Shown here: positions 1-35,650 of the stretch, in pieces
Numbering within the stretch: the stretch's first letter is position 1
Layout of the letters: the number at the start of each line of letters is the position of its first letter
IMG/VR virus record: IMGVR_UViG_2547132418_000015
Length of the DNA stretch: 48,662 nucleotides
Origin: a virus
Taxonomy: Duplodnaviria > Heunggongvirae > Uroviricota > Caudoviricetes
Reading direction: 5' to 3' (one strand)
Program-made: the position numbers and the translations under genes
The notes under the pieces: model-generated
Told to the model about the DNA's origin: nothing
What the model saw: only the letters and a program-made list of their open reading frames with translations
The model's database searches: none

Positions 1-692
1 CAAATACGGCATCAGTTACCGTGAGCTGCAGGAGATGCTGGCTGAACGCGGAGTGAATGTCGATCACTCCACGATTTACCGCTGGGTTCAGCGTTATGCG
101 CCTGAAATGGAAAAACGGCTGCGCTGGTACTGGCGTAACCCTTCCGATCTTTGCCCGTGGCACATGGATGAAACCTACGTGAAGGTCAATGGCCGCTGGG
201 CGTATCTGTACCGGGCCGTCGACAGCCGGGGCCGCACTGTCGATTTTTATCTCTCCTCCCGTCGTAACAGCAAAGCTGCATACCGGTTTCTGGGTAAAAT
301 CCTCAACAACGTGAAGAAGTGGCAGATCCCGCGATTCATCAACACGGATAAAGCGCCCGCCTATGGTCGCGCGCTTGCTCTGCTCAAACGCGAAGGCCGG
401 TGCCCGTCTGACGTTGAACACCGACAGATTAAGTACCGGAACAACGTGATTGAATGCGATCATGGCAAACTGAAACGGATAATCGGCGCCACGCTGGGAT
501 TTAAATCCATGAAGACGGCTTACGCCACCATCAAAGGTATTGAGGTGATGCGTGCACTACGCAAAGGCCAGGCCTCAGCATTTTATTATGGTGATCCCCT
601 GGGCGAAATGCGCCTGGTAAGCAGAGTTTTTGAAATGTAAGGCCTTTGAATAAGACAAAAGGCTGCCTCATCGCTAACTTTGCAACAGTGCC
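1..692 (+). mobile_element. IS26 (IS6 family), 3' part ending with the terminal inverted repeat; the 5' part is at the window end
   Basis: IS6-family transposase ORF followed by TTTGCAACAGTGCC at 679-692, the reverse complement of GGCACTGTTGCAAA at 48309-48322; positions 1-231 are identical to 48432-48662. Confidence 0.93.
2..640 (+). CDS. tnpA: IS26 transposase, C-terminal part (N-terminus at 48372-48662)
   Basis: ORF 35..640 is open back to position 2; translation continues the 48372.. ORF (MNPFKGRHFQRDIILWAVRWY...YRAVDS | RGRTVDFYLSSRRN...). Confidence 0.93.
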   Translation, partial: KYGISYRELQEMLAERGVNVDHSTIYRWVQRYAPEMEKRLRWYWRNPSDLCPWHMDETYVKVNGRWAYLYRAVDSRGRTVDFYLSSRRNSKAAYRFLGKILNNVKKWQIPRFINTDKAPAYGRALALLKREGRCPSDVEHRQIKYRNNVIECDHGKLKRIIGATLGFKSMKTAYATIKGIEVMRALRKGQASAFYYGDPLGEMRLVSRVFEM

Positions 693-9322: not shown

Positions 9323-10822
9323 TTACAGAATGAACTGAACTTGTGCCGCGAAAATGCGGAACTGGTTAATCAGATTCGGGCCGCACAGCACATCAAGACG
9401 GTCTTTGTCGTCCTTGTTACGTGCCACATACAGCTCCTCTTTGAACGTGTCGAAATCCTCGACCAGTCCGGCGTTTTCCCATTCTTCAAACAGTGCCAGC
9501 AGCTCCGTTTTGATCACGGATGGCGTCACCACGGCCTGACCGGTGGCAAAGCGGGTGCCATCACTTGCCAGCTTGTGGTTCGGGAATTTCTGCGTGATGC
9601 GGGTTCGCAGCGAATAACGCAGATAACTCAGCGTGGCGATGGTATTCACGTTCAGATAAGACGGATCGCTGTCACCGTACTTGTTCGTGCGGTACATCGT
9701 GATCATGCGTTCAATCTGCATTTCACCACCATCATTCACGTTAAACGTGGAGATGCCGTCAAACAGCAGCGCATTACGTTCTGACCAGGTGAAACGATCC
9801 CCCACCGCAGGCGGCATTCTTCCGGGCAACGTCAGCGTCTGGAGTGGACGCGCCGGGTCGATGGAAAGCGCCTGGCTGGCAACGGCACACAGGGTGGCGG
9901 CGTACAGATATGACGGTTCCGGTGCACCGGCAATCCCCATACAGGAAATCAGATGGTCATTACGTCTGACACCAAACGTGGAAATATCCCCATACGTGCC
10001 GGACAGCACTGTCACGGCAAAGCCATCAGCCTGACTGACCGGTCCCCAGCGTTCCTGCAATTCAGTGCGTAACAGATTCAGGTTCGGTTCATCGGTATAG
10101 GGCATCACAATATATTTGTATTGCAGATCGCCCATTCCCGCGATACTTGCGCTGATATCCGGGTTGATGTATTTCCGGGATTCGGCTTTGAATGCCGTGA
10201 TAATCCCGTAAGGGGTGGTTTCACCCGCGTAATAGTTCCAGCGCACATCCACGGCAGATAATGCACCCGTAAATTTTGCAGTCAGAACTATATCTGTAGC
10301 GCCGGCATCATCCGGCGTGGTTGAGAGCAATACTGCCTTCACCGGCAAATCAGGATGACCGTTGATTCGGTCAGTCAGCAGGCCAGCCAGCTTCGATCCC
10401 TTGGTACCTGCTGCGACGGATACCGCCAGTCGCTGACCGGCAATGTAAGTCACAAGCGAGCCGTTTTCGGTTGCCGTTCCTGACAGTGTGATTAAACCGA
10501 CAGTAGTTTTAGAGATAGTATTACCGGGGTTTTTCGCCTGCGGAATACACCACAGCTCCGCCACGCGGTTAGCTTTCAGGAATGCATCTGCCATCAGTGC
10601 CAGCATGGAACCCTGACCAAACGCCGCACTGGCCTGTGAGCCGGAACGGATACGGACAGGCACGTCTGGTGCCGCACTGGCCCCCTTATTGCTTTGCCCG
10701 AACATCAGCACGCGCTGACGGGGGGCCGGTGTTCCGCTGACGGCATTACTGTTATCAAATTCGATATACGCCAGAGGAACGCGAACATCTGGCGGGATCG
10801 CGTTAAATGAAATATCGCTCAT
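9323..10822 (-). CDS. Contractile tail sheath protein (Mu L-like)
   Basis: 499-aa [19 protein letters not shown]..., myovirus sheath position. Confidence 0.88.
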
Positions 10823-11591: not shown

Positions 11592-12016
11592 CAGATAAAC
11601 CCCTTCTGTTTTCGTGAAAAAACAGGTGGATCAGACTGAATCTGCACAAGATCCTCTCCCTCCGGAGAGGCTGCCGTCCTGCTTTCCACACCCGGATCTG
11701 TTTTGCCATCACGTACCTGTTCCAGCCAGCGCACCGTGTCCCTGTAAGTTGCGGTGATCTGCTCGGTGGGTTGTGATTCATTCAGATAAAACCAGGCCAC
11801 CACGCAACACTGCCGTTTCAGCAGTGAGGGGACGACGGTAAGCGGCAGAACAAAGCGCGCGGCGAGATAGCCATCAATAAAGGCCGAGGCATCTGCCAGT
11901 GCCTGTTCTGCCACGGCATCATCCGGCTGCCCGTCCGCTGTTTTAGGGCGGGTGAGAATATCCAGCCGCGTACGTGTATAGCGGGCGCACAGGTCATTTA
12001 CCGTCGCGTAATTCAT
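11591..12016 (-). CDS. Head-tail connector protein (Mu gp36-like)
   Basis: 141-aa ORF, synteny. Confidence 0.65.
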   Translation of the reverse strand: MNYATVNDLCARYTRTRLDILTRPKTADGQPDDAVAEQALADASAFIDGYLAARFVLPLTVVPSLLKRQCCVVAWFYLNESQPTEQITATYRDTVRWLEQVRDGKTDPGVESRTAASPEGEDLVQIQSDPPVFSRKQKGFI

Positions 12017-12423
12017 GCATCCGCCTCAGCCAGCGCCGCTTTGATTTGCGCACTGCTCACCGGTTCCCCCAGCGCCGCACTGACGGCTTTCACTTTGGGT
12101 TCTCCCCCTGCGGTAAAGTGTTCCGGGTTTGCCTTATCCAGACCGGCAAGGGTCGCACGGATACGGGCGTTCAGATCGCCCACACCCAGAACGTCCAGCC
12201 CCCCAGCCTCAGCGAGCGTTTCTGCTGACGATGCAGATACCACAGACAGCACGCTGTCGGCACGAATGATCGCCAGTTGTTCTTCGGTGACTTCCACGGT
12301 GTTTTCGCCACGTGTAAAGGCGATTCCGGCGCGGCGGTAGACCGGACGAAGGCATTTAATAATCGCCGTGCAAGTGATGCGAGAAGTGTCCAGCCGTTGT
12401 GAATTAAGCGAAGTCCCTGACAT
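12013..12423 (-). CDS. Head-associated protein (Mu gp35-like)
   Basis: 136-aa ORF immediately downstream of the major capsid gene and its terminator. Confidence 0.6.
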   Translation of the reverse strand: MSGTSLNSQRLDTSRITCTAIIKCLRPVYRRAGIAFTRGENTVEVTEEQLAIIRADSVLSVVSASSAETLAEAGGLDVLGVGDLNARIRATLAGLDKANPEHFTAGGEPKVKAVSAALGEPVSSAQIKAALAEADA

Positions 12424-12456
12424 AACACATGCTCCTCCTTTTCCTTTATATCAGGT

Positions 12457-12481
12457 TAAAAGGCGGTCTGAACCGCCTTTT
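12457..12481 (-). terminator. Putative intrinsic terminator downstream of the major capsid gene
   Basis: AAAAGGCGGTCTGAACCGCCTTTT hairpin 8 nt after the capsid stop. Confidence 0.5.
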
Positions 12482-12489
12482 AATGACGG

Positions 12490-13407
12490 TTACAGGTAGT
12501 CAGCGACAACCAGTTGCAGCTTGCCCTTCATCTCGTTGGAGACGGTGGTATTGCCATCCGCGAACAGTTCACGGTTAAGCAGTTGCTCTGCGGCTTTTTC
12601 CAGCCCGACCGGTACAACGATATGCGTCGGCTTCAGGCCCAGCTTCTTACCGCCATCACCTTCAAAAGAGCGCATCAGTTGCCAGCCCTTCCAGAGGTTA
12701 TCCAGCGTCAGATCGCCTTTTACCGCGACAGCCATCTGCCAGAAGCCGTAACCGGCAGCACGCCGGGCGCTGGCACCAAACAGGAACTCGTTATCCATAA
12801 AAACGTGGTCGTCATCGATACGGGTACGTGCGACCAGTTCGGGTTTGCGGCGCTCCTGGAAAATCAGCGGTTTGACTGCGCGGGAGCAGTCCAGCAGATA
12901 GAACGGCAGACCACTGAAGCTGTCCTGTTCAACGATGTTAGAGGTATTCTTTACGTCGCCCGTGCCGTCCACATTCGGATATACCGGATGCTCCTTGTCG
13001 AAGAAGTTCTGACCGTCATAGCAGTGCTGGGTAAAGCCATCTTTCAGAAGTTTAAAAATCAGCTCATCCGGCTGAACTGCCGCAGAACGCCCCATCTCCT
13101 GAAAAATCGGCGCATAAATACCCAGATTGTCATCCTCGAAGTCATCACGGGAAATACCCACGGTGCCTTCAAACGTTTTATTGGCGATGGAGTAGCCATG
13201 CGCTTGCATTTGCTGAATGGTTCGCTTACCCACCCATTCTTTCAGGGTCGGGAATTTACCCAGCCAGCCATAGGTATTGCTGCGGGTGGAAGAGTTCACC
13301 GCCATTGCAATTCTGCTGTACTGCGACGGGGCGTCTTCAAGACCGCCCTGAAAATCCTTACGCCAGGAGGTCATCAGGGCTTTAATGGATGCCGGGGTGA
13401 CAATCAT
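12490..13407 (-). CDS. Major capsid protein (Mu T-like)
   Basis: 305-aa ORF after the protease/scaffold gene. Confidence 0.88.
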   Translation of the reverse strand: MIVTPASIKALMTSWRKDFQGGLEDAPSQYSRIAMAVNSSTRSNTYGWLGKFPTLKEWVGKRTIQQMQAHGYSIANKTFEGTVGISRDDFEDDNLGIYAPIFQEMGRSAAVQPDELIFKLLKDGFTQHCYDGQNFFDKEHPVYPNVDGTGDVKNTSNIVEQDSFSGLPFYLLDCSRAVKPLIFQERRKPELVARTRIDDDHVFMDNEFLFGASARRAAGYGFWQMAVAVKGDLTLDNLWKGWQLMRSFEGDGGKKLGLKPTHIVVPVGLEKAAEQLLNRELFADGNTTVSNEMKGKLQLVVADYL

Positions 13408-14489: not shown

Positions 14490-14685
14490 GTCCTGCTGCT
14501 CATCATGGTTTGTGAGCAGTCAGTTTGCGGGAGGTGCGGGAAAATCTGGGGTTATGCTATTTGAGTACTGGAGAAAGAAAGTGGAAGGAAGATAAAACGG
14601 GATTCATACACCGTTAAATACCGGTTTAAAAATCCCGTGGCGCGTTTTAAAAAATCTGTGCAGCTGATTTTATGCCTGATTCTGT
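14490..14685. promoter_or_regulatory. G-I intergenic region: hairpin terminator after G, likely late promoter for I, possible strong gyrase site
   Basis: 196-bp non-coding gap about 18.05 kb from the prophage left end; stem CGGGATT...AATCCCG followed by T-run on the minus strand. Confidence 0.4.
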
Positions 14686-16472: not shown

Positions 16473-17991
16473 CCAGACGCCCCCATATATCGGCAACAAA
16501 AATGGCACGGGTCAGCATGTCGATAAGTTCTGCATCATCCATCTGCGGATATAATGAAGCGGCTTTGTTCATGGCGGCTTCCGGGCCATCTTTCAGCACA
16601 GAAAAAATGACGGGTTTCAGCAGGGGATCAACCGAACGCTGCCAGTCTTCCGGTGACACGCCCATCCGGTCGATATCATCCTCCTGCGGGATATCTTCAG
16701 CGGATAATGCGGCTTCTTTCTGCGGACCGTTATCCGGGACAACCGGTTGAGCAGTAAACACGGCTTCGTCACCGACCGGCTGTGGAATATGGAGTTTTTC
16801 CTGTATCCAGGAGACCGGAATACGCATTCCCGCCGCCAGTTTCGGAATGGCGTCAGACAGTGCCGTAATATCACCCGCTTCACTGGTATCAAACACAATG
16901 CCCGGCAGGCGGTTAATATCAATGGTGCTGTCACTGTTCAGTGCCAGCAGGGGATAAATCAGGTCACGGTTAATACTGCGGGCAAGCTGGCCCACATCCG
17001 CGTTACGGATTTCCCGGCGAACCTCATCATGCACTTCACCCAGCGACCGTGCACCTTTATCGCCGGCCTCTGTGGTCAGGGTGCCGCCCAGAATGGCTTT
17101 TGAAATCGCTTTTTCTGCCCAGCCAATCATCGCCATAAAGGGGTCTGACTGACCATCTGCGGCGCTCTGAAAATCCAGCGTCATCCCCATCGGAATAATG
17201 CCACCGGCACGTCGCCCGATATCCATCACGGCCTGCATCAGCGTGGCTTTCTCACGGTTCGTGGAGCCGGTCGGATATTTACCGACGCGCATGGGGAGTC
17301 CGTAAATTTCCAGAAACTCTGCAAAATCACGCACGGAATAGTTTTTAAAAATAAAAGGCCAGATAAGCGTGCGCACAAGGCCATTGGTGCCAACGTACCC
17401 GGTGCGGGATTTGGCCCGGTGCATAAACCAGCCGAACGGTTGCAGCTCCAGCCCGTGATAAGACGCATCACACAGGCGTAATTCGTTCAGATTGTCGGGG
17501 TTCGCACAGAACAGCGCCGGATCGCGATGATGCAGCGCCACCGGCACGCGCATTTTGCCCAGCCATCCCCATTCAATCTCCTGCATGGAATAACCCTTGA
17601 GAATGGCATCACCGGCATCAAACAGGGCATCTTCAAACCACGCCGCATCATGCAGATATTCATTCAGCATGTCGGCGTCTTTTTTCTCCTGTGCGCTGGC
17701 ATCACGTGCCGGAGCGATGCGCCATTCCAGCGCCTGAATGGCAAGCCGGCGTTTGCTCAGTTCGGAAAAAAGGTGGGTGTCCTTTTCTTCCATATCAAAG
17801 GCCAGGTCAGCCTGTGCGGTCAGATCACCGCGTTCGGCATCACGCAGCATCTGCGCGGCCCGGTTCGGCGTCACACCACTGGAAGGATGCTCCTGCGTAC
17901 GCTTCATGACCATTGCCAGCTCATCGCTGCGGGTCTGCATTTCATCGTCAAAATCAAACGGCTGCCCGGAAATATCCAGAATACGGCCCAT
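16453..17991 (-). CDS. Portal protein (Mu H-like)
   Basis: 512-aa ORF directly downstream of the large terminase. Confidence 0.88.
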   Translation of the reverse strand: MGRILDISGQPFDFDDEMQTRSDELAMVMKRTQEHPSSGVTPNRAAQMLRDAERGDLTAQADLAFDMEEKDTHLFSELSKRRLAIQALEWRIAPARDASAQEKKDADMLNEYLHDAAWFEDALFDAGDAILKGYSMQEIEWGWLGKMRVPVALHHRDPALFCANPDNLNELRLCDASYHGLELQPFGWFMHRAKSRTGYVGTNGLVRTLIWPFIFKNYSVRDFAEFLEIYGLPMRVGKYPTGSTNREKATLMQAVMDIGRRAGGIIPMGMTLDFQSAADGQSDPFMAMIGWAEKAISKAILGGTLTTEAGDKGARSLGEVHDEVRREIRNADVGQLARSINRDLIYPLLALNSDSTIDINRLPGIVFDTSEAGDITALSDAIPKLAAGMRIPVSWIQEKLHIPQPVGDEAVFTAQPVVPDNGPQKEAALSAEDIPQEDDIDRMGVSPEDWQRSVDPLLKPVIFSVLKDGPEAAMNKAASLYPQMDDAELIDMLTRAIFVADIWGRLDAAADH

Positions 17992-19646
17992 TACCAGCCC
18001 CCTCGTTCAAACTGGTGATAATCATCAAAATCATCGTTATCAACATCATCACCACGGTGGCGTGGTGGTAGCGGACGAACGCTGTCCTCGTCGATAACAA
18101 AACCATTCATATAAGACGCCCTGACAGCCATACAGAGCGCCACGGCAAAGTCGCCATGTCGTCGGCCTTTACCACCTTCATCTTTTGTGCGCCCCTTATC
18201 AATCTGCGGAATACCTTTGTCCACCTTGATGTGGAGCAGGTCATCAAGTGTGGTCTGGTGCCGGGCAATCGTGATGTTCTGCGCCTCAAACTCGCCTTTC
18301 AGTTTGGGCATCCACTCCTGATACCAGGATGCGGTCAGATTCACACAGTCGATCATCTCCGGGCCATAAATCAGACGGGCGGCTTCTGCCAGATAACCGC
18401 CGTTACCGGTGGCATCAAATGCAGCGCCGGTAAAACGGGGCAAACGGGACAGAATGAATAAAAGGATTTGTCGCTGCTGGTCATAGGTCACATTACGCAG
18501 CTCCACGCGGAAACATTCGCGTTTGCGTAAGTCAGGCGTGATGGCAAGCGGCACAAACACCGTCAGGTCGCCACGGCGTGCAAAGTCTTCGCCCAGTACG
18601 TGTTTATTGAGCGGCGACAGCGCATCGAGCAACGGGAGCAGCTCCTGTTCACACCAGTCCTGAACGATGCCGTGGCGCATTTGTGGTGTCAGCGATTCAA
18701 AATCGTCCGGGGCTTCAAAACGCAGAACCGGGATATCCCGCGCGGGTGTCATGGCAGCTTCAATCAGCACGCGTGACAGATAAGCGCCCCCGGATTTTTT
18801 AGGAATGCAGCCGTATTCCTCGTCGGCGCTCTCTTTATTCGGCGCATTCCGGTACAGGCCATCACGCCAGGCTTTTTCCGCTTCCGGCGACCACGGCTGA
18901 TTCGTGACGTAACAGATACGCCGGTACAACCCGTCAGCGATGGCATCATCCAGCGTGATGCGGTGAACGCTGTAATCCTTGCGCCCCTCGCGCGCATCCT
19001 GAATGTACTGGTTAAACAGGTTATCGACGCCGTTATGTGTCGATATGATGCGCACGCTGGCACCCCACATGTTTAGTGCAAAGGCCGCTTTCAGCAGTTC
19101 GTCCAGGGCTTCATGGAATGCCGCCTCATCAATCACCACGTCCCCCTGCAAACCACGCAGGTTAGACGGACGGCTTGACAGCGCCTGTATCTTAAATCCG
19201 CTGTTCGGAAAGCGGATCATGTAGGTGAGGATTTCTTCTTTTTTGTCGCTGTCCCAGAAGGTCTGCTCCCAGACGTCAGCCTTTGCCAGCTGGTTAAAGG
19301 CGCGGGCAAACAGGGCACAGGCGGCGATGTATTCCAGCGCCATTTCCTGACGGGAACCCACATAAAAGACGTTGCGACCACCGCGACGCTTCGGCTTTGC
19401 GGCCGTCATGACATTGCGGCCCGCTTCAGCCCATGTCAGACCGGTACGACGGGATTTTTCAGCGATGCAAATCTGGCTTTCATCCTCAAACCAGCGGCGC
19501 TGATAGCCCAGAAAAACCGGTTCATTGCGGGGCTGTGCTTCCCCGATATCGGTCACGATATTCACGCCGAGCAGTCCGGCTTCCTCACGCAGGTTGATTT
19601 TGCGGGGCGCATGAAGGGCTTTAAGATTGTTTTCTCTGGTGTTCAT
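17991..19646 (-). CDS. Terminase large subunit
   Basis: ORF 17991..19838; start placed at ATG 19646 (MNTRENNLKALHAPRK...) to avoid overlap with the small subunit. Confidence 0.88.
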   Translation of the reverse strand: MNTRENNLKALHAPRKINLREEAGLLGVNIVTDIGEAQPRNEPVFLGYQRRWFEDESQICIAEKSRRTGLTWAEAGRNVMTAAKPKRRGGRNVFYVGSRQEMALEYIAACALFARAFNQLAKADVWEQTFWDSDKKEEILTYMIRFPNSGFKIQALSSRPSNLRGLQGDVVIDEAAFHEALDELLKAAFALNMWGASVRIISTHNGVDNLFNQYIQDAREGRKDYSVHRITLDDAIADGLYRRICYVTNQPWSPEAEKAWRDGLYRNAPNKESADEEYGCIPKKSGGAYLSRVLIEAAMTPARDIPVLRFEAPDDFESLTPQMRHGIVQDWCEQELLPLLDALSPLNKHVLGEDFARRGDLTVFVPLAITPDLRKRECFRVELRNVTYDQQRQILLFILSRLPRFTGAAFDATGNGGYLAEAARLIYGPEMIDCVNLTASWYQEWMPKLKGEFEAQNITIARHQTTLDDLLHIKVDKGIPQIDKGRTKDEGGKGRRHGDFAVALCMAVRASYMNGFVIDEDSVRPLPPRHRGDDVDNDDFDDYHQFERGGW

Positions 19647-19653
19647 AACCCTC

Positions 19654-20244
19654 TCATGCCTTACCCAGCAGCACATCACGGATACGCTGCTCCAGCTCTT
19701 CGCTGATGCCATCCTGCCCGCGCAGTTCTTCACTGACGGCGTTTGCCGCTTCTTCTGCGAATGCCTGGCGGATTTCTTTCTCGCGCCGGTGGCTGGACAT
19801 TGCCGTGGATTCCAGACGCTGTGCCGCCAGCATGGCATTTTTCAGCAGGTCAATATCCACGTCAGATTCCGGGTTTTCGATTTGCCGCATCATGGCCTTA
19901 AAAAGCTGGCTGCGGGCCATTTCCAGAATCAGCTTTGTGGTTTCTCCCATTGGCTTGTCGCCAAGTTCTGCGGTCAGTGCTGACGTCATTTCACGCATCT
20001 GTCGCAGGTTATGGCCTACCTGCTCGACGTTCGTCGCGTAACGGTTCAGACCGGAACGGGAGAGTTTCATCTCATCCGGCAGGCCTGCGTCTTCAATCAG
20101 TGCGTTAATTTCTTCCAGAATGCGGGCCTGTGGGATCGCTTTATCACGCAGCATTTCATGCAGCGTTTTACGTACGTTTTCCGGCAGTAAATCCACTTTT
20201 GAAGCCCGGCCCCGTGTTTTCCTGTCCATCACGCCTCCTGTCAT
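19654..20244 (-). CDS. Terminase small subunit-like protein (Mu gp27-like)
   Basis: 196-aa ORF immediately upstream of the large terminase. Confidence 0.75.
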   Translation of the reverse strand: MTGGVMDRKTRGRASKVDLLPENVRKTLHEMLRDKAIPQARILEEINALIEDAGLPDEMKLSRSGLNRYATNVEQVGHNLRQMREMTSALTAELGDKPMGETTKLILEMARSQLFKAMMRQIENPESDVDIDLLKNAMLAAQRLESTAMSSHRREKEIRQAFAEEAANAVSEELRGQDGISEELEQRIRDVLLGKA

Positions 20245-22068: not shown

Positions 22069-22140
22069 GCTTCCCTGAAAAAATGCGCTGATGGCAGTCT
22101 AAAAAATCAGATGGCAGGTGCGGGATTATGGTGACAGGAA

Positions 22141-22163
22141 ATAACCGGCAGGATGCCGGTTAT
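22141..22163 (-). terminator. Hairpin at the 3' end of the C gene
   Basis: ATAACCGGCAGGATGCCGGTTAT inverted repeat overlapping the C stop codon; U-tract is weak. Confidence 0.35.
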
Positions 22164-22582
22164 TTTGGGCTTTCAGGTGAGAACAGATCAGGCTGATGAC
22201 GTCGTGTATGCAGCTTTCTCTGGCGGGCAATAATCTGGTAGATCTGCGGCTGGGACAGGCGATACTGGCGACGCAGTTCTTCCATGTTACGACCATTGAA
22301 CTGGCAGTAAAGCAAATCGTCGCGTAACGCGGTCAGGATCGTATCGCCGCAGGGGATGTAAAACTGCCGCCCGCCCAGAAAACAGGACAGGGCAACGGCC
22401 TGTTTACGGGCAAGCTCACGGGGATTGCTGACGTTCTGGCGTTTCAGTTCGTTTTCCAGAATATCAATCAGATCAACCACTGAACGGGGCCAGCGTGATT
22501 CCAGTTCCGGGGCCGGGATGTTATCAATATGCCCGATTAACTGGCGAATTGCCGGATCGTGTTCAAATAAATCATGCTGCAT
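22160..22582 (-). CDS. C: Late transcription activator C (Mor/C family)
   Basis: 140-aa ORF paralogous to the upstream 129-aa Mor-like ORF; located just before lys as in Mu. Confidence 0.85.
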   Translation of the reverse strand: MQHDLFEHDPAIRQLIGHIDNIPAPELESRWPRSVVDLIDILENELKRQNVSNPRELARKQAVALSCFLGGRQFYIPCGDTILTALRDDLLYCQFNGRNMEELRRQYRLSQPQIYQIIARQRKLHTRRHQPDLFSPESPK

Positions 22583-27200: not shown

Positions 27201-27620
27201 TCAGTACAGCAGAGGCTCGCGCAGTGATGCCGGAATATGCCGCAGCGATAACTGAACCGCTTTCAGGGCAAGCGAGGAATAACAGCAGCGCGCCCAGCCT
27301 TTTGCCATTAACCGGTAATCGCGCCAGATACGCTGCCACATTTCACGGGCCTCAGGGTCTGATGCGCAGATGTATTCCCGGTCCATGACGTACTCCCATA
27401 AATCCACGTTGAACGCACCGCCAAATGCAATGGCGCGGGATATGCTTTCGCCGCAATAACGCGCACAAATGCTGTAATGGTCGAAAGCAATCAGGTAAGT
27501 CTTTTCACCACAATCATCAACTTTCCGGGCGCAAATAAACTCGCGTAATTCACCACCGTTGTTATTGCGTTCCTGAATTCGGATTAATGCCTGAATTTCA
27601 TTTCGGATTTTGACGTTCAT
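27201..27620 (-). CDS. Hypothetical early-region protein
   Basis: 139-aa ORF. Confidence 0.5.
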   Translation of the reverse strand: MNVKIRNEIQALIRIQERNNNGGELREFICARKVDDCGEKTYLIAFDHYSICARYCGESISRAIAFGGAFNVDLWEYVMDREYICASDPEAREMWQRIWRDYRLMAKGWARCCYSSLALKAVQLSLRHIPASLREPLLY

Positions 27621-29336: not shown

Positions 29337-29374
29337 CTGAATAACCTCGTAATTAAATTTTGTTTAAACGTTAA

Positions 29375-31363
29375 TTAAATGGCTTTTTTACGTCTGTTCT
29401 GTTCCAGAATATCCAGCGAATGATTCAGATATTCATCACGCTCAGTTTCGTATTCATCATCACGCTCCTGATTCTTCACCCGTTCCGTATTACCGGAAGG
29501 CCGGAAAATGCCGACAATTCGTGATTCTGGTGCTTCAGGTTCGGCTATCTGCGGCAGCAGCTCTGCCACTTCCAGTGCATCCATTTGTTTCTGTGCCTTA
29601 ATCGCTGCTTTCGTCGCAGATTTCAGTTGTTTCTGGCGGCGGCGATATTCACGGCCTGCCGCAGCATCATTAAACGCAACAGGTGCCAGACATTCCGCTT
29701 CACAGATAAACCGACCGTCCAGGGTGTAACAATAAACCGTGCTGTGTAGCTGCTGCGGATCAAACCTGACCACAACTTTTTTCACGCCGGCATTCATTAA
29801 TGCCATGTTGTAATAAACGTTTTTCGCGCCTTTAAGGGAGCCGCCAACTTTAAGCGTAAACTCGCCTTTGCGTGAAACGTTCACCGCCTCGGCAGGCAGT
29901 AACAGCATCCGTTTTTGTTCTTCGGTTGGCTTACGCACAATCGTTCTGGCGTATTCACGCTCGAAAACATCATCAAACGAGAGTTTGCCCCCGCACATTT
30001 CTGTTTCACGGCCTGTTCTGGCATTGAACATCGCCACACCTTCGGCAAGGTTTTTCAGAAACAGCTCTGCATCAACAGCGCGGTTGCCATAGTTATCAGG
30101 TTTTGCCTGCGGATTTGGCCCCGTATATGCGCCAGCCAGTGCCGGATGCTTATCAACGTATTCCTCAAGCCCACCAACACCGAAAGCACGTTCAACAGGT
30201 TTTGCCTGGCCCCAGCCTTTACCGGCAACAACGCTTGTCCAGTGCATTTTCGCACCCATCAGTAAAAACAATCCCTTTGGATCGTCTTCTTTCACCTTAA
30301 AGCGGTAGCGATTGGGCGCGCCTCCCGTCAGCCATTTATTCGCAGCACCACGGGTGTTATCAATGGTGATGTGAAAATCCTCCGGGATACCGTAGCGAGT
30401 CACAACATCCATGAACGAGAGGCGAATTGAATCAATGTTCTCGCTCACATCGCAGCGCCAGCCCAGAATTTTTCGGGTTTTCACATCCTGCCAGAACCAT
30501 GTTTTCGGGCGGATCACATCACCGTTAAACCAGCGTACAAAGACGTTATGCAGATAACCGTCGCCGTTGATCCACTGCATGGCGTCCAGGTGTTCCACAG
30601 TTCGCTGCTGTGCCGGTATCAGATGCATCAGTGCATGTTCACCTTCACGACAGGCAACAACCATTGCCTCGTCCAGTTGCTGAATCCGGCGAAAGGCCGT
30701 GGCACGGGAGGGAATCCTCCAGCCATGCTCGCGGGCTGCCAGTTCCAGACGCTCATAACATTTGCGGAAGGCGGGTTTTTCCGGTCGCAGATAATCTGCA
30801 ATCAGAAACTGCCAGGCATCCTCGTCAAATTCACTTTTGTGAACATTGCGACGGGATGCACCACGTCCATCAACAAGTGCAGCCGCCCAGTCAGGCTTCG
30901 CAAACTTCTGTACCTGGTAATACTTGTCCCGCAAAGTGGATGCGCTGACCTGGTAATGCCCTGCAACGGTCGCAAAAGCCGTTTTCGTTGAAATCCCCTG
31001 GTTCAGCATTTCGTCTGCAGCCTGAACCGCAGGCAACCATTTTTCAGCAAGTCTGCGCTGGGAATCGCTGGCTTTATCCCATTTGCTCCACAGCACCTCA
31101 CGATCATAATCATGGGCTTCCAGCGTGGGGCGGGCGATTTCAAAACGGCCCAGGCTTGTTTCAATTCTCCCTTGTTGCAACAGAATTTCAGCACGTAATG
31201 CGACAGGGAATGATTTGATATTGAATTCAAATGATACACCTTTAGTCCCTGCAACCTGTCTGAACTCCCAGCCTTCTCTTTGTGCCTTACGTGTAATGTT
31301 AGTGGCTTGCTTTGGTAAACCTGCCAAACCGAGCAACTCTTTTGCTGTATACCATTCTTTCAT
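29375..31363 (-). CDS. A: DDE transposase A
   Basis: 662-aa ORF, Mu A-like over most of its length with a divergent N-terminal DNA-binding region. Confidence 0.93.
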
Positions 31364-31370
31364 AGCGCAC

Positions 31371-31592
31371 CTAGTATCGAGACGGCCAAATATCTTGCGG
31401 TGTCATTCCCAGTGCATCTGCAATGATTTTCTCCGCTTTCGGATATCTCTTATCCAAAGCATTTTTTAATGTTGAAGACGAAAGATGATTAGATCTTCCC
31501 AATTCAGCTAGTGACATATTGCGTTTTCGTAGCTCTGCAACGATGTCAGCTCTGTGCCAATCTTGGCGGTTAGTTCTTTTATTCATATGCAT
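31371..31592 (-). CDS. ner: Ner-like early transcriptional regulator
   Basis: 73-aa ORF ending ...[14 protein letters not shown], first gene of the early operon. Confidence 0.85.
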
Positions 31593-31777
31593 TTCATGTA
31601 ATCCTTTCAGATTCCCCCGCGAGCTACGCTATAAAGTAGCTCACGGCATATCGTGCAATGTAGTGTGGAATCACTTTCAAATCAATAGTGATTTGAAAGG
31701 ATTTGCCATGATTTCATATAACAGCATGATTTTTATATGAATTTATTTTGTCTCTATTGAAATCACTAGGATTTTAA
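31593..31777. promoter_or_regulatory. Divergent early/repressor promoter and operator region
   Basis: Between divergent ner and c; palindromes AGCTACGCTATAAAGTAGCT (31622-31641) and CTTTCAAATCA-ATAG-TGATTTGAAAG (31674-31699). Confidence 0.7.
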
Positions 31778-32302
31778 ATGATGTCTTTTGAAATCAAAGA
31801 ATGGTTTAATGCGAAAGAGCTGGAAGGGATGCCTGGTGTACCAAAGTTGGCGACTAACATTACCAGGAAAGCTGTGGCGGAAGATTGGGTAAAACGTCAG
31901 CGTCACGGTGGGAAAGGTGTCGCTTATGAGTATCACATCAACAGTCTGCCAGAAGAAACACGCAGGGCCATTAAAGGAGCCTCACTTTCTGATAAACCAG
32001 TGCATACATCAATCGCCCATACAGTTGATGAGAGGCTAATTTATGCAATGAGCTTCTTAACACCAGATGAGCAGGCCGCAGCTGTGGAGATCATTCGTGT
32101 GGCAGGGATTAAAGGACTTATGCCTACAATTGTCAGTAAAGATAAGGCATTAGAGGCATTAGGGATTACTGTGGAGCAACAGAAAACCCTGCAAACTCTT
32201 CAGGCATTACCACCGGAAAAAGTGAGAGAGATTTTGTCTCAGTATGAAGGCAAAGAACATAATTTCCCTGTAAGAGAAAACGATGTAAAGAAAGCTGTAT
32301 AA
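31778..32302 (+). CDS. c: Repressor c (Mu/D108 family)
   Basis: 174-aa ORF with AGGA ribosome-binding site; C-terminus ...KVREILSQYEG...KKAV as in Mu-type repressors; divergent from ner. Confidence 0.85.
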   Translation: MMSFEIKEWFNAKELEGMPGVPKLATNITRKAVAEDWVKRQRHGGKGVAYEYHINSLPEETRRAIKGASLSDKPVHTSIAHTVDERLIYAMSFLTPDEQAAAVEIIRVAGIKGLMPTIVSKDKALEALGITVEQQKTLQTLQALPPEKVREILSQYEGKEHNFPVRENDVKKAV

Positions 32303-33729: not shown

Positions 33730-35650
33730 AGGCGATCTGGATTATCGTCACGCTGTTAAATATGTCGCGGTAGGGATACCCGTTACCGGATACCCCCCGC
33801 ACAGATCCCGGCGTGCGCGATTTACGCACCGGGCTCCTGCCTCGGGTGTCTGGCGGTGAACCGCTCCACAGGCCATGGATGAAGAACCCGAACCCTTGGT
33901 AGCCATGCGGCTGCCAGTTTGTTTGCTTTCGTCCAGGTCGTATCATCCTTCTGGCTCCTGCGCCTGAGCGCCCGGCGCCAGAGGTTTGTTACGTGTGTCC
34001 TGAACTTCTGCATGGTGGGGAAGTTGCCCGGTACCGAGTGATAGTTCAGGTATCCCTGAACCACTCTCCTGAGCCATTTTCCCTGTTCGGGGATTGAGTA
34101 ATGCCAGCGCCTTCGCAGACCGTCTTTGATGGCTTTCAGAGTTGCCGTCATCCGATCCCGGCGGGTCTTTCGTATCAGCATGAACCTGCCGTTGCGATCT
34201 TTCCCGCTGATGTGCGTGAACCCGAGGAAGTTGAACGTTTCTGGTTTGCCTTTTCCCCTGATGGCACGGTTTTCGGCAGCGAAGCGGCCGAACTCCATCA
34301 GACGGGTTTTCTCCGGGTGAACCGTGAGTCCGAACTCCCTCAGTCTGCGCTGCATGGCTATACGGAAGCGCCGGGCATCGTATCGTTTGTCGAACCCGAT
34401 GACGATGTCATCGGCGTATCTGACCATTACCACATTGCCTGTGGCATAGCGACGTCGCCACTGATGCGCCCACAGATCGAAGACGTAGTGGAGGTATATG
34501 TTTGCCAGCAGCGGTGAGATGACCGCACCCTGTGGGGTGCCTTCCTCCGTTGCTCGCCATTGACCCTCCTCCAACGTCCCGGCTGTGAGCCACTTACGTA
34601 TGAGCCTGATTACGCTCCGGTCGCCGATCCGATGCTCTGTGAACCTGATCAGCCATTCGTGGCTCACCCTGTCGAAGAACTGACTGATGTCGGCATCCAG
34701 TACCCAGTTTACGTTAGTGCGTACCAGCCCTGTGGCCAGTGCGTCCAGTGCATCGTGCTGGCTTCGCCCGGGTCTGAACCCGTATGAGAACCCCATAAAG
34801 TCGTTTTCATAGACTGCGTTCAGGATTTTCACCAGCGCATACTGGACGATCTTGTCCTCCAGCGAGGCGATGCCGAGCGGGCGTTGTTTTCCATCCGCTT
34901 TTGGGATGTAGTGACGCCTGCCGGGCTGCGCCCTGTAGCTGCCCTAATGTAGCCTCCGGTGCAGATCTGTTATGTTGTTCTTCATGTTTCCGGCGTAGTC
35001 CATCCACCTGATGCCATCCACTCCGGCGGCCGCTTTCCTGCTCAGGGAGAGGAATGCGGCTTCCAGTGCTTCGACTGTCAGCAGGTGGAACAATGCTGTA
35101 AACCGTTCTTTCTTCCGCTGCTTCGCAGCTTCCCGCACGCGTGACAGCCTCTGTGACATGCTTTCCCGGCTCTGTGTCCGGCGCATGTGTGGCTGTTCCG
35201 CGTTCCCCTTGGCCCCGCTCCTTCGCTCCACTGACTCCGCTCCTTTCGGGTTGTTCGCCTGCTTCGCCGCTACTATGAGCGAGTCCGACTTCTCCTCTCC
35301 GTACATCACCGGCTATGACTCCTCGTCTTCCCGGTGCGGGCCGTCTCCGACACTGGCAGATGGTCAGAGGGGAGATCTCCCGGTTCCCGCGTAGAGATCG
35401 TATTGACATGCCAGGGTCTCAGACCCCGCCGGGTCCATGTGGCACTCGCAGTATCGCACCCTATGATGTTGCCTTCCGTTAACAGTACAACGTCGGCACC
35501 CGGTAATTTAATATACATTTCGTGGCTCAATGGCTGGCCTGTCAACACCCCTGTCAACGCTTCGCCCCATACCTCGCGGTATGCAACGCATGACTCGGGG
35601 ACCTTGTGGATTGCTGGTCCTTCAATGGTCGGGGACTTTCACCCCTTGAT
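33730..35650 (-). mobile_element. Group II intron 1, boundaries approximate, 5' end possibly truncated
   Basis: Reverse transcriptase ORF; domain V-like GAGCCCGGTGCGTAAATCGCGCACGCCGGGATCT on the minus strand at about 33803-33836. Confidence 0.6.
33822..35309 (-). pseudogene. Group II intron reverse transcriptase/maturase interrupted by an in-frame TAG
   Basis: ORFs 34944..35309 and 33822..34832 are in the same frame, separated only by TAG at 34944-34946; motifs AAGVDG, FRPGRSQHDA, YADD. Confidence 0.8.

Follow-up and report, generated by a model that had tools for sequence, protein, structure and literature searches.

A conserved hairpin behind the major capsid gene of a Mu-type prophage as a probable leaky terminator

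The window analyzed here, which is the whole 48,662-nucleotide stretch of IMG/VR virus record IMGVR_UViG_2547132418_000015, carries a Mu-type prophage in reverse orientation, as established by colinear alignment with phage Mu, and the element under study is a strong hairpin directly downstream of the gene for its major head protein, T. Comparison across Mu-like phages indicates that selection maintains this hairpin as an RNA structure of the coding strand, with several independent clades agreeing. On balance, we consider it probable that the hairpin acts as a leaky intrinsic (Rho-independent) terminator in the Mu late operon read from promoter P_I, and that it would also cap the message for genes I, Z and T with a protective 3' stem-loop.

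Structure and conservation of the hairpin

The features of the locus are given in the order in which they would be transcribed.

12490..13407, minus strand: major head (capsid) gene T, 305 aa, from the open reading frame (ORF) list; Mu_34, major capsid protein, in Mu
12490-12492, minus strand: TAA stop codon of T, from the ORF list
12482..12489, minus strand: 8-nt linker CCGUCAUU from the T stop to the first paired base, from the sequence
12458..12481, minus (coding) strand: hairpin, plus strand aaaaggcggt ctga accgcctttt, from the sequence, its fold and the Mu annotation
12424..12457, minus strand: A/U-rich spacer with the gene 35 ribosome-binding site, AACCUGAUAUAAAGGAAAAGGAGGAGCAUGUGUU, from the sequence
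12013..12423, minus strand: gene 35, head-to-tail connector protein of the HI1506/FluMu_N family, from the ORF, the Mu annotation and Pfam

On the coding strand the hairpin reads AAAAGGCGGU-UCAG-ACCGCCUUUU, with its 5' arm at 12481-12472, the loop at 12471-12468 and the 3' arm at 12467-12458. The stem is perfect over 10 bp with a 4-nt loop, or over 12 bp (12456-12483) counting one further T/A pair per side, and is composed of a 6-bp GC core (GGCGGU/ACCGCC) plus four A-U pairs. The terminal four U (12461-12458) double as a short U-tract, with AACC next. The first-pass annotation had placed a strong hairpin right after the major capsid gene, starting 8 nt past the capsid stop; its sequence and coordinates are correct, and the 8 nt are those of the linker counted between TAA and the stem. 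Gene 35 starts with the ATG at 12423, giving a T-35 spacer of 66 nt, and its Shine-Dalgarno sequence GGAGGA lies at 12439-12434 (the ribosome-binding site is annotated in Mu at 20106-20111). The gene 35 product matches Pfam PF17891 (FluMu_N) with E = 1.8e-10.

Perfect stems of at least 10 bp occur at only three sites in the 48.6-kb window, compared with a mean of 0.22 scan hits (maximum 2) in 50 mononucleotide shuffles, and these three strong palindromes are unrelated in sequence. An 86-nt region folds at -26.6 kcal/mol (z = -2.87), and the RNAfold optimum, made up of the hairpin plus four outer pairs, lies at -18.6 kcal/mol; the element being a near-palindrome, the opposite strand folds almost equally well. 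Rfam gave no match at the gathering threshold in the spacer, and a permissive Rfam scan of the spacer returned generic hairpin matches only, at 9.6-16.3 bits compared with gathering scores of 40-229.

Using the T protein and a 20-sequence alignment, ~170 loci were collected from bacterial genomes and viral contigs. Their T homologues, which carry Pfam PF10124 (Mu-like_gpT), are 49-100% identical, and the stop codon of each was located. A stem-loop of -12 kcal/mol or stronger, beginning no more than 35 nt from the stop, was found in 105 of 127 distinct spacers. The median best hairpin in the spacers was -16.7 kcal/mol, compared with -10.3 and -12.2 kcal/mol in T coding windows of equal length. 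The stems are unrelated in sequence between clades: the Mu, Citrobacter and Erwinia types have GGCGG, Photorhabdus and Xenorhabdus have CGGGG, Yersinia and Erwinia have CAGGG, Pasteurellaceae have GUGCGG and Edwardsiella has GCCGGGC, with still others elsewhere.

Covariation was assessed in a gap-free alignment of 19 enteric-type hairpins, in which 93% of cells pair, compared with 25-61% when the partners are slid. Changes on both sides were found in four of the 12 pairs (CG/GC 11:8, GC/CG 11:8, GC/AU 17:2 and UA/AU 15:1), and the closing pair is U-A in nine hairpins, U-G in nine and unpaired in one. U-G pairs can form only in the sense-strand RNA; on the opposite strand, or in a DNA palindrome, the same positions give a C-A mismatch. 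In addition, the sense fold is the better one in 64 of 100 distinct hairpins and the antisense fold in 34. The aligned loci are phylogenetically related, so p-values from them are not strict. A conserved position, stems that differ between clades, compensatory changes and U-G pairs together argue for a selected RNA structure. Close relatives, such as Mu, D108, SfMu and the Yersinia phages, do not contribute to this argument: among 18 Mu-type loci the hairpin is invariant, which is uninformative because only ~1.8 changes would be expected at the synonymous rate. Further out, the hairpin and nearly the whole spacer are the same in Mu and phage Tongde, though the Tongde T gene is only ~81% identical overall.

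One T-35 spacer, that of locus L007 (IMGVR_UViG_2531839192_000008), has its hairpin unit duplicated in tandem over 41 nt between TTTAAAGG repeats, which gives two successive hairpins, the first with a larger loop. The arrangement suggests slippage or recombination between the TTTAAAGG copies.

Read-through and probable termination in the P_I operon

Mu late genes are transcribed by the host RNA polymerase with sigma-70 and the activator C (PMC2582627; PMC12867686), and the four late promoters of Mu are P_lys, P_I, P_P and P_mom (PMC2582627). The following features of the window lie upstream of gene I.

14598..14637, minus strand: hairpin after gene G, predicted terminator, tail UUUUAUCUUCC, from Mu annotation 17908-17953
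14502..14568, minus strand: late promoter P_I, C-activated, from Mu annotation 17977-18043 via the colinear alignment

Situated just upstream of gene I, P_I drives transcription of I, Z and T and of all further genes as far as N. The promoter annotated after it, P_P (Mu 27287-27353), lies inside gene N, 7 kb past the hairpin, and the Mu map has no annotated promoter between the two. P_I is the sole annotated promoter for genes 35, J, K, 38, L, M, 41, Y and N, and gene 35 is the first gene dependent on read-through of the hairpin. Most of genes 35 to N are essential morphogenetic genes. Since none of genes 35 to N has a separate promoter ahead of P_P, termination at the hairpin must be partial and can never be a full stop.

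The hairpin is not new, as it is already annotated, though experimentally uncharacterised. It is identical to Mu 20064-20087, and the curated Mu record AF083977.1 lists a "terminator, predicted by TransTermHP" at 20068-20087, which is the same hairpin and a prediction rather than an experiment; the program accepted the Mu tail, UUUUAACC, and D108 carries the same terminator feature. We ranked the hairpin with a d'Aubenton-Carafa-type score using modern energy parameters, the zero threshold of which is uncalibrated, so that scores are read as a relative ranking only. The hairpin after T scored -2.5, in comparison to -5.7 for the hairpin after gene C and -2.6 for the hairpin after gene G, both of which are annotated as predicted terminators and lie immediately before P_lys and P_I, respectively. 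The score of t9.2, a strong early terminator, was +24, and sixty random 66-nt Mu windows averaged -67 and reached -30 at most. The hairpin after T is terminator-grade by Mu standards. Its T-tail is the weakest of the Mu set except for an intragenic prediction inside gene 14, with a tail weight nT of 3.2 compared with 3.1-4.8 in other Mu terminators. As expected of an intrinsic terminator, the element is a G+C-rich stem-loop with a short loop, located on the sense strand (minus) just downstream of the stop codon at 8 nt, and its U-G pairs favor the sense strand.

The hairpin after gene C is present in the window as the other perfect 12-bp hairpin, at 22139-22165 (AAATAACCGGCAGGATGCCGGTTATTT on the plus strand); it corresponds to the Mu terminator at 10383-10406, directly before P_lys.

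We infer the following course of events. Host RNA polymerase would initiate at P_I and transcribe I (protease), Z (scaffold) and T (major head), and at the hairpin with its UUUU a fraction of the polymerases would release their RNA. The released I-Z-T message would end in a stable stem-loop, shielding it against 3' exonucleases, while the other polymerases would continue into 35, J, K, 38, L, M, 41, Y and N. The outcome would be more mRNA for capsid, scaffold and protease than for head completion and tail. Leakiness would have two sources, the first being the short U-tract (four U, then AACC) and the second a ribosome finishing T at the stop 8 nt upstream, which would block folding of the 5' arm.

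The second source has a precedent in lambda tR2, for which Li et al. (2016) measured in vivo a drop in termination efficiency from ~90% to <10% when a stop codon was placed 5 bp upstream (PMC4824070). Full efficiency needed more than ~27-30 nt from the stop, and a ribosome at the stop blocks hairpin folding (PMC4824070). The distance from the stop to the first paired base in the Mu-like loci has a median of 9 nt and is no more than 10 nt in 64 of 106 hairpins. By analogy, the Mu hairpin should terminate only those polymerases that have no ribosome close behind, and the stop codon 8 nt upstream offers a simple reason for leakiness.

Several observations weigh against termination, and some reach beyond Mu. 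By the same analogy, the 8-nt stop distance could suppress termination almost completely under coupled translation. A simple terminator scan did not list the hairpin, as the tail TTTTAACC has four T and the rule needs five in eight; we judge this miss to be a limit of the 5-T rule and not evidence of absence. We found no Mu RNA-seq, transcript 3'-end mapping or termination measurement in the literature, and a 2026 PNAS paper on MuC and the sliding clamp makes no mention of the T-35 hairpin site. Family-wide, the T-tail is not conserved, with a mean of 3.0 T in the 8-nt tail compared with 2.6 A in the lead (not significant), and the terminator-type score of the spacer was higher than that of a coding control four times as long for only 49 of the 74 representatives. 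GC hairpins in Pseudoalteromonas, Edwardsiella, Pelagibaca P1 and Vibrio 1.136.O have no T-tail at all. Finally, D3112, H72 and FP_Mushu have neither spacer nor hairpin, and the element is dispensable in some Mu-like phages.

The tails differ by clade. Enteric, Photorhabdus and Pasteurellaceae types are symmetric (TTAAA-stem-TTTAA), and the tails found at this position in a marine subset are canonical T6-7 tails (for example L160, L079, L046 and L075). A family-wide comparison of tail strength after G and after T gave no usable ranking, as the G-I spacer was partly covered and the scan included coding DNA; the examples kept are Mu, Photorhabdus and Yersinia. The common denominator of the family appears to be the stem-loop, with termination plausible for Mu and for the clades with canonical tails, and not the whole story. 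The first-pass annotation had proposed a terminator or attenuator at this site. That proposal is the best supported, given the TransTermHP annotation, a score like those of the hairpins after C and after G, and covariation. It does not extend to full termination, which is excluded, and it is weakened by the short U-tract, the nearby stop and the unconserved T-tail. The terminator prediction suggested as a check gave a divided answer, with TransTermHP calling the Mu copy and the simple scan for five T in eight passing over it.

Alternative roles and the phased TTTAA motifs

The main rival is an RNA-stability or processing element with negligible termination, in which the P_I transcript would undergo either cleavage in the single-stranded A/U-rich stretch past the hairpin or decay from the 3' end, and the hairpin would serve as a barrier to 3'-to-5' exonucleases such that I-Z-T outlives the downstream segment. 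This would explain why the hairpin and not the T-tail is the conserved feature, many relatives having a strong GC hairpin with no U-tract, and it fits with a stop 8 nt upstream that should repress termination under coupled translation. It also fits the unpaired A/U-rich stretch after the Mu stem, where the sequence GAUUU presumably suits the RAUUW preference of RNase E-type enzymes. However, Mu has four U right after the GC stem and an A-tract before it, the score equals those of the terminators after C and after G, canonical T6-7 tails occupy this place in several relatives, and GAUUU is lost in the window variant by a single-nucleotide change. We regard a pure stability element as unlikely, though as an alternative to be taken seriously, and the present evidence does not separate it from a leaky terminator. 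Protection of the mRNA 3' end may in any case be as important as termination. Processing by RNase III was rejected, a 12-bp stem being too short for it.

Near the hairpin, the window differs from Mu by a synonymous change in codon 3 of gene 35 and by a single T-to-A change 9 nt downstream of the stem, at window 12447 (minus strand; GAUUUAAAGG in Mu, GAUAUAAAGG in the window). The latter variant, also present in two IMG/VR loci, destroys the second TTTAA of the spacer and creates TGATATAAA, an extended -10-like element without the final T. It also completes a 10-bp helix between the sequence after the hairpin and the gene 35 start codon (12415-12457), with the predicted pairing probability of the gene 35 AUG being 0.97 in the window and 0.01 in Mu. 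This helix was dropped from the mechanism, as it is found only in the variant and is not conserved in Mu or the other clades.

TTTAA itself is 11-fold enriched in T-35 spacers. At least two copies are present in 30 of 70 representative T-35 spacers, where shuffles give 0.27; their spacing is mostly 11 nt, otherwise 22 and 33-35 nt, and in many spacers the final copy abuts the Shine-Dalgarno sequence as TTTAAAGGAG. We counted as phased those sense-strand TTTAA copies lying 10-12 nt apart (also in loci L174, L182 and L003-L173). In 81 representative Mu-like loci (354 kb) there are 61 phased pairs compared with 1.1 expected, and 54 of the 61 fall at two sites, 30 of them within 100 nt after the T stop and 24 in the G-I spacer. 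Mu has six phased pairs compared with 0.06 expected, and only one pair of the reverse motif TTAAA; they lie in the A-B spacer, inside the hairpin after G, in the T-35 spacer and at the 46/47 junction. The corresponding phased TTTAA sites of the window are as follows.

~29357-29379: A-B spacer
~14618-14630: G-I spacer
~12424-12461: T-35 spacer
~2664-2686: 46/47 junction

At the 46/47 junction, a Photorhabdus prophage keeps three TTTAA copies, one of them in a different codon frame. In the terminator after G of Photorhabdus, the 5' arm shares the TTAAACGGGG core with the hairpin after T, but the tail of this terminator is long and T-rich. With respect to start codons, TTTAA occurs 10 times in the region 8-45 nt upstream of Mu starts, compared with 2.9 expected (p = 5e-4), and forms clusters ahead of genes B, 35 and 47. 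Of five control pentamers, four were not enriched there and ATTTA was marginal (p = 0.04).

These motifs give rise to a further alternative, in which the hairpin organizes translation initiation of gene 35. It would sequester the sequence next to the stop and keep the TTTAA stretch and the Shine-Dalgarno sequence single-stranded, offering ribosomes a platform to load onto a gene whose translation is uncoupled from that of T, with TTTAA being part of this signal and not a U-tract. The enrichment in T-35 spacers with the last copy often abutting the Shine-Dalgarno sequence, the enrichment upstream of Mu start codons and the strand-specificity of the signal all agree with such a role. Yet it gives no reason for a strong covarying GC stem, nor for the hairpin in clades that have no TTTAA. 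The motif is also found in the G-I spacer, ~120 nt before gene I and inside the hairpin after G, which is not a ribosome-binding context, and the window does without the second TTTAA. We consider this role rather improbable as the explanation of the hairpin, and note that the TTTAA at the foot of the stem may be both a short U-tract and part of an A/U-rich ribosome-loading region.

From the motif distribution, we raise only tentatively, as a doubtful proposition, that the hairpin belongs to a strand-specific "punctuation" module of Mu-like phages, consisting of a G+C stem that has TTAAA/TTTAA at its foot and is accompanied by additional TTTAA copies at a phase of ~11 nt. No earlier description of such a module was found. 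A specific factor could read it, for example ribosomal protein S1, a standby ribosome, an RNase or an RNA-binding protein of the phage; at the DNA level, gyrase could wrap it as at the neighboring strong gyrase site. Candidate roles for the phased TTTAA are a translational enhancer, a processing site and a DNA-wrapping signal.

A palindrome acting at the DNA level, either bound by a dimeric protein (such as a Mor/C-type activator at a fifth late promoter) or serving as a gyrase-type wrapping site, is very improbable. The inverted repeat is perfect, co-variation of half-sites would also appear compensatory, and in the G-I spacer phased TTTAA copies lie at a distance of 35-50 bp from the strong gyrase cut site annotated there. 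Nevertheless, U-G closing pairs occur in nine of 19 hairpins compared with one C-A, such that symmetry is broken in the DNA and pairing is kept in the sense RNA only, and only four late promoters have been described for Mu (PMC2582627). C sites are 16-bp dyads, imperfect and centered at -43.5 (PMC2582627). A fifth C-dependent promoter was rejected, as a dyad centered at 12469.5 puts the -10 hexamer on GGAGGA (12434-12439) and the sequence is unrelated to the C-site region of P_I (ATAACCCC...); a scan of the T-35 spacer found no promoter-like site. Lastly, a functionless palindrome, arisen by chance or hitch-hiking and kept by recent common ancestry, would suit the uninformative invariance of the 18 Mu-type sequences and the Mu-like phages that have no hairpin, but is equally improbable given a position kept from Enterobacterales to Pasteurellaceae, Aeromonas and marine gammaproteobacteria with unrelated stems and compensatory changes.

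The surrounding prophage and comparison with known systems

The segment bearing the hairpin has 97.5% DNA identity to phage Mu, with D108, SfMu and several Yersinia phages as further close relatives. The left end of the prophage lies near window 32641, and Mu colinearity extends down to window 692 (Mu 31810), where the match stops inside the tail-fibre gene S; over window 1-692 the tail-fibre end of the prophage either differs from Mu or is cut by the window edge. At the other end, window 31176-32281 has no detectable DNA similarity to Mu 360-1518 (repressor c, operators and ner), and the left end at 32282-32641 matches Mu at 79.6% only, compared with 95-98% identity for the rest of the prophage. 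Judged by this divergence, the prophage appears to be heteroimmune to Mu. Within the diverged immunity and early-promoter region, a perfect 11-bp inverted repeat at 31674-31699 (CTTTCAAATCA-ATAG-TGATTTGAAAG) could be an operator for the prophage's own repressor or a Ner-type protein. The DNA flanking the prophage contains a group II intron, with an Rfam RF02005 match to D1-D4 (186.6 bits) at 35414-35639 on the minus strand, followed on the same strand by an ORF at 33825-34832 with the reverse transcriptase domain RVT_1 (E = 1.6e-39); both lie ~1.2-3 kb outside the Mu left end.

For Mu, a leaky terminator after T would be an ordinary means by which a single late promoter could supply the messages for capsid, scaffold and protease in excess of those for head completion and tail, without a further regulator. 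With respect to the predicted terminator of Mu and D108, the hairpin sequence, the flanking genes and the operon are the same, and there is no difference in the hairpin.

In T7, the T-phi terminator raises capsid message relative to that of later structural genes. A terminator directly after the capsid gene has been described for T7 and LUZ100 (PMC10134795), and the Mu arrangement is alike in having a stem-loop right after the major capsid gene and downstream structural genes that need read-through, as seen from its position and from the promoter map. It differs in polymerase and promoter. In T7-like phages, termination acts on the polymerase that the phage itself encodes, and a local promoter serves the capsid gene. 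Mu uses the host sigma-70 polymerase and C at P_I (PMC2582627), from which the capsid gene is expressed together with those for protease and scaffold. The Mu hairpin does not act on a phage-encoded single-subunit RNA polymerase, and the analogy is one of design only.

The likeness to lambda tR2 lies in an intrinsic terminator a few nucleotides after a translated gene, with an efficiency set by the distance to the stop (PMC4824070). The lambda case is an engineered reporter with a strong terminator, whereas the Mu arrangement is natural and weaker, and stop-codon proximity would act on it in the same sense. Intercistronic stabilizing hairpins, such as the repetitive extragenic palindromic (REP) sequence of malE-malF and those of papBA and puf, along with the terminator after gene VIII of filamentous phages, bring about differential expression by 3' protection and/or partial termination. 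The Mu hairpin resembles them in following the most highly expressed cistron. In contrast to the multi-copy REP elements, it is single-copy and confined to Mu-type prophages among 5,426 E. coli genomes: a 271-nt query matched Mu-type prophages only, in 45 of the 5,426 genomes, at a median of one place per matching genome, which is not the pattern of a REP or bacterial interspersed mosaic element (BIME) palindrome.

A leaky terminator behind the capsid gene is a well-known phage design. What is added to Mu biology is that the hairpin covaries across very distant Mu-like prophages, that its T-tail is unconserved and that the closeness of the stop should make termination translation-dependent. 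The phased TTTAA is the only part that might repay new work.

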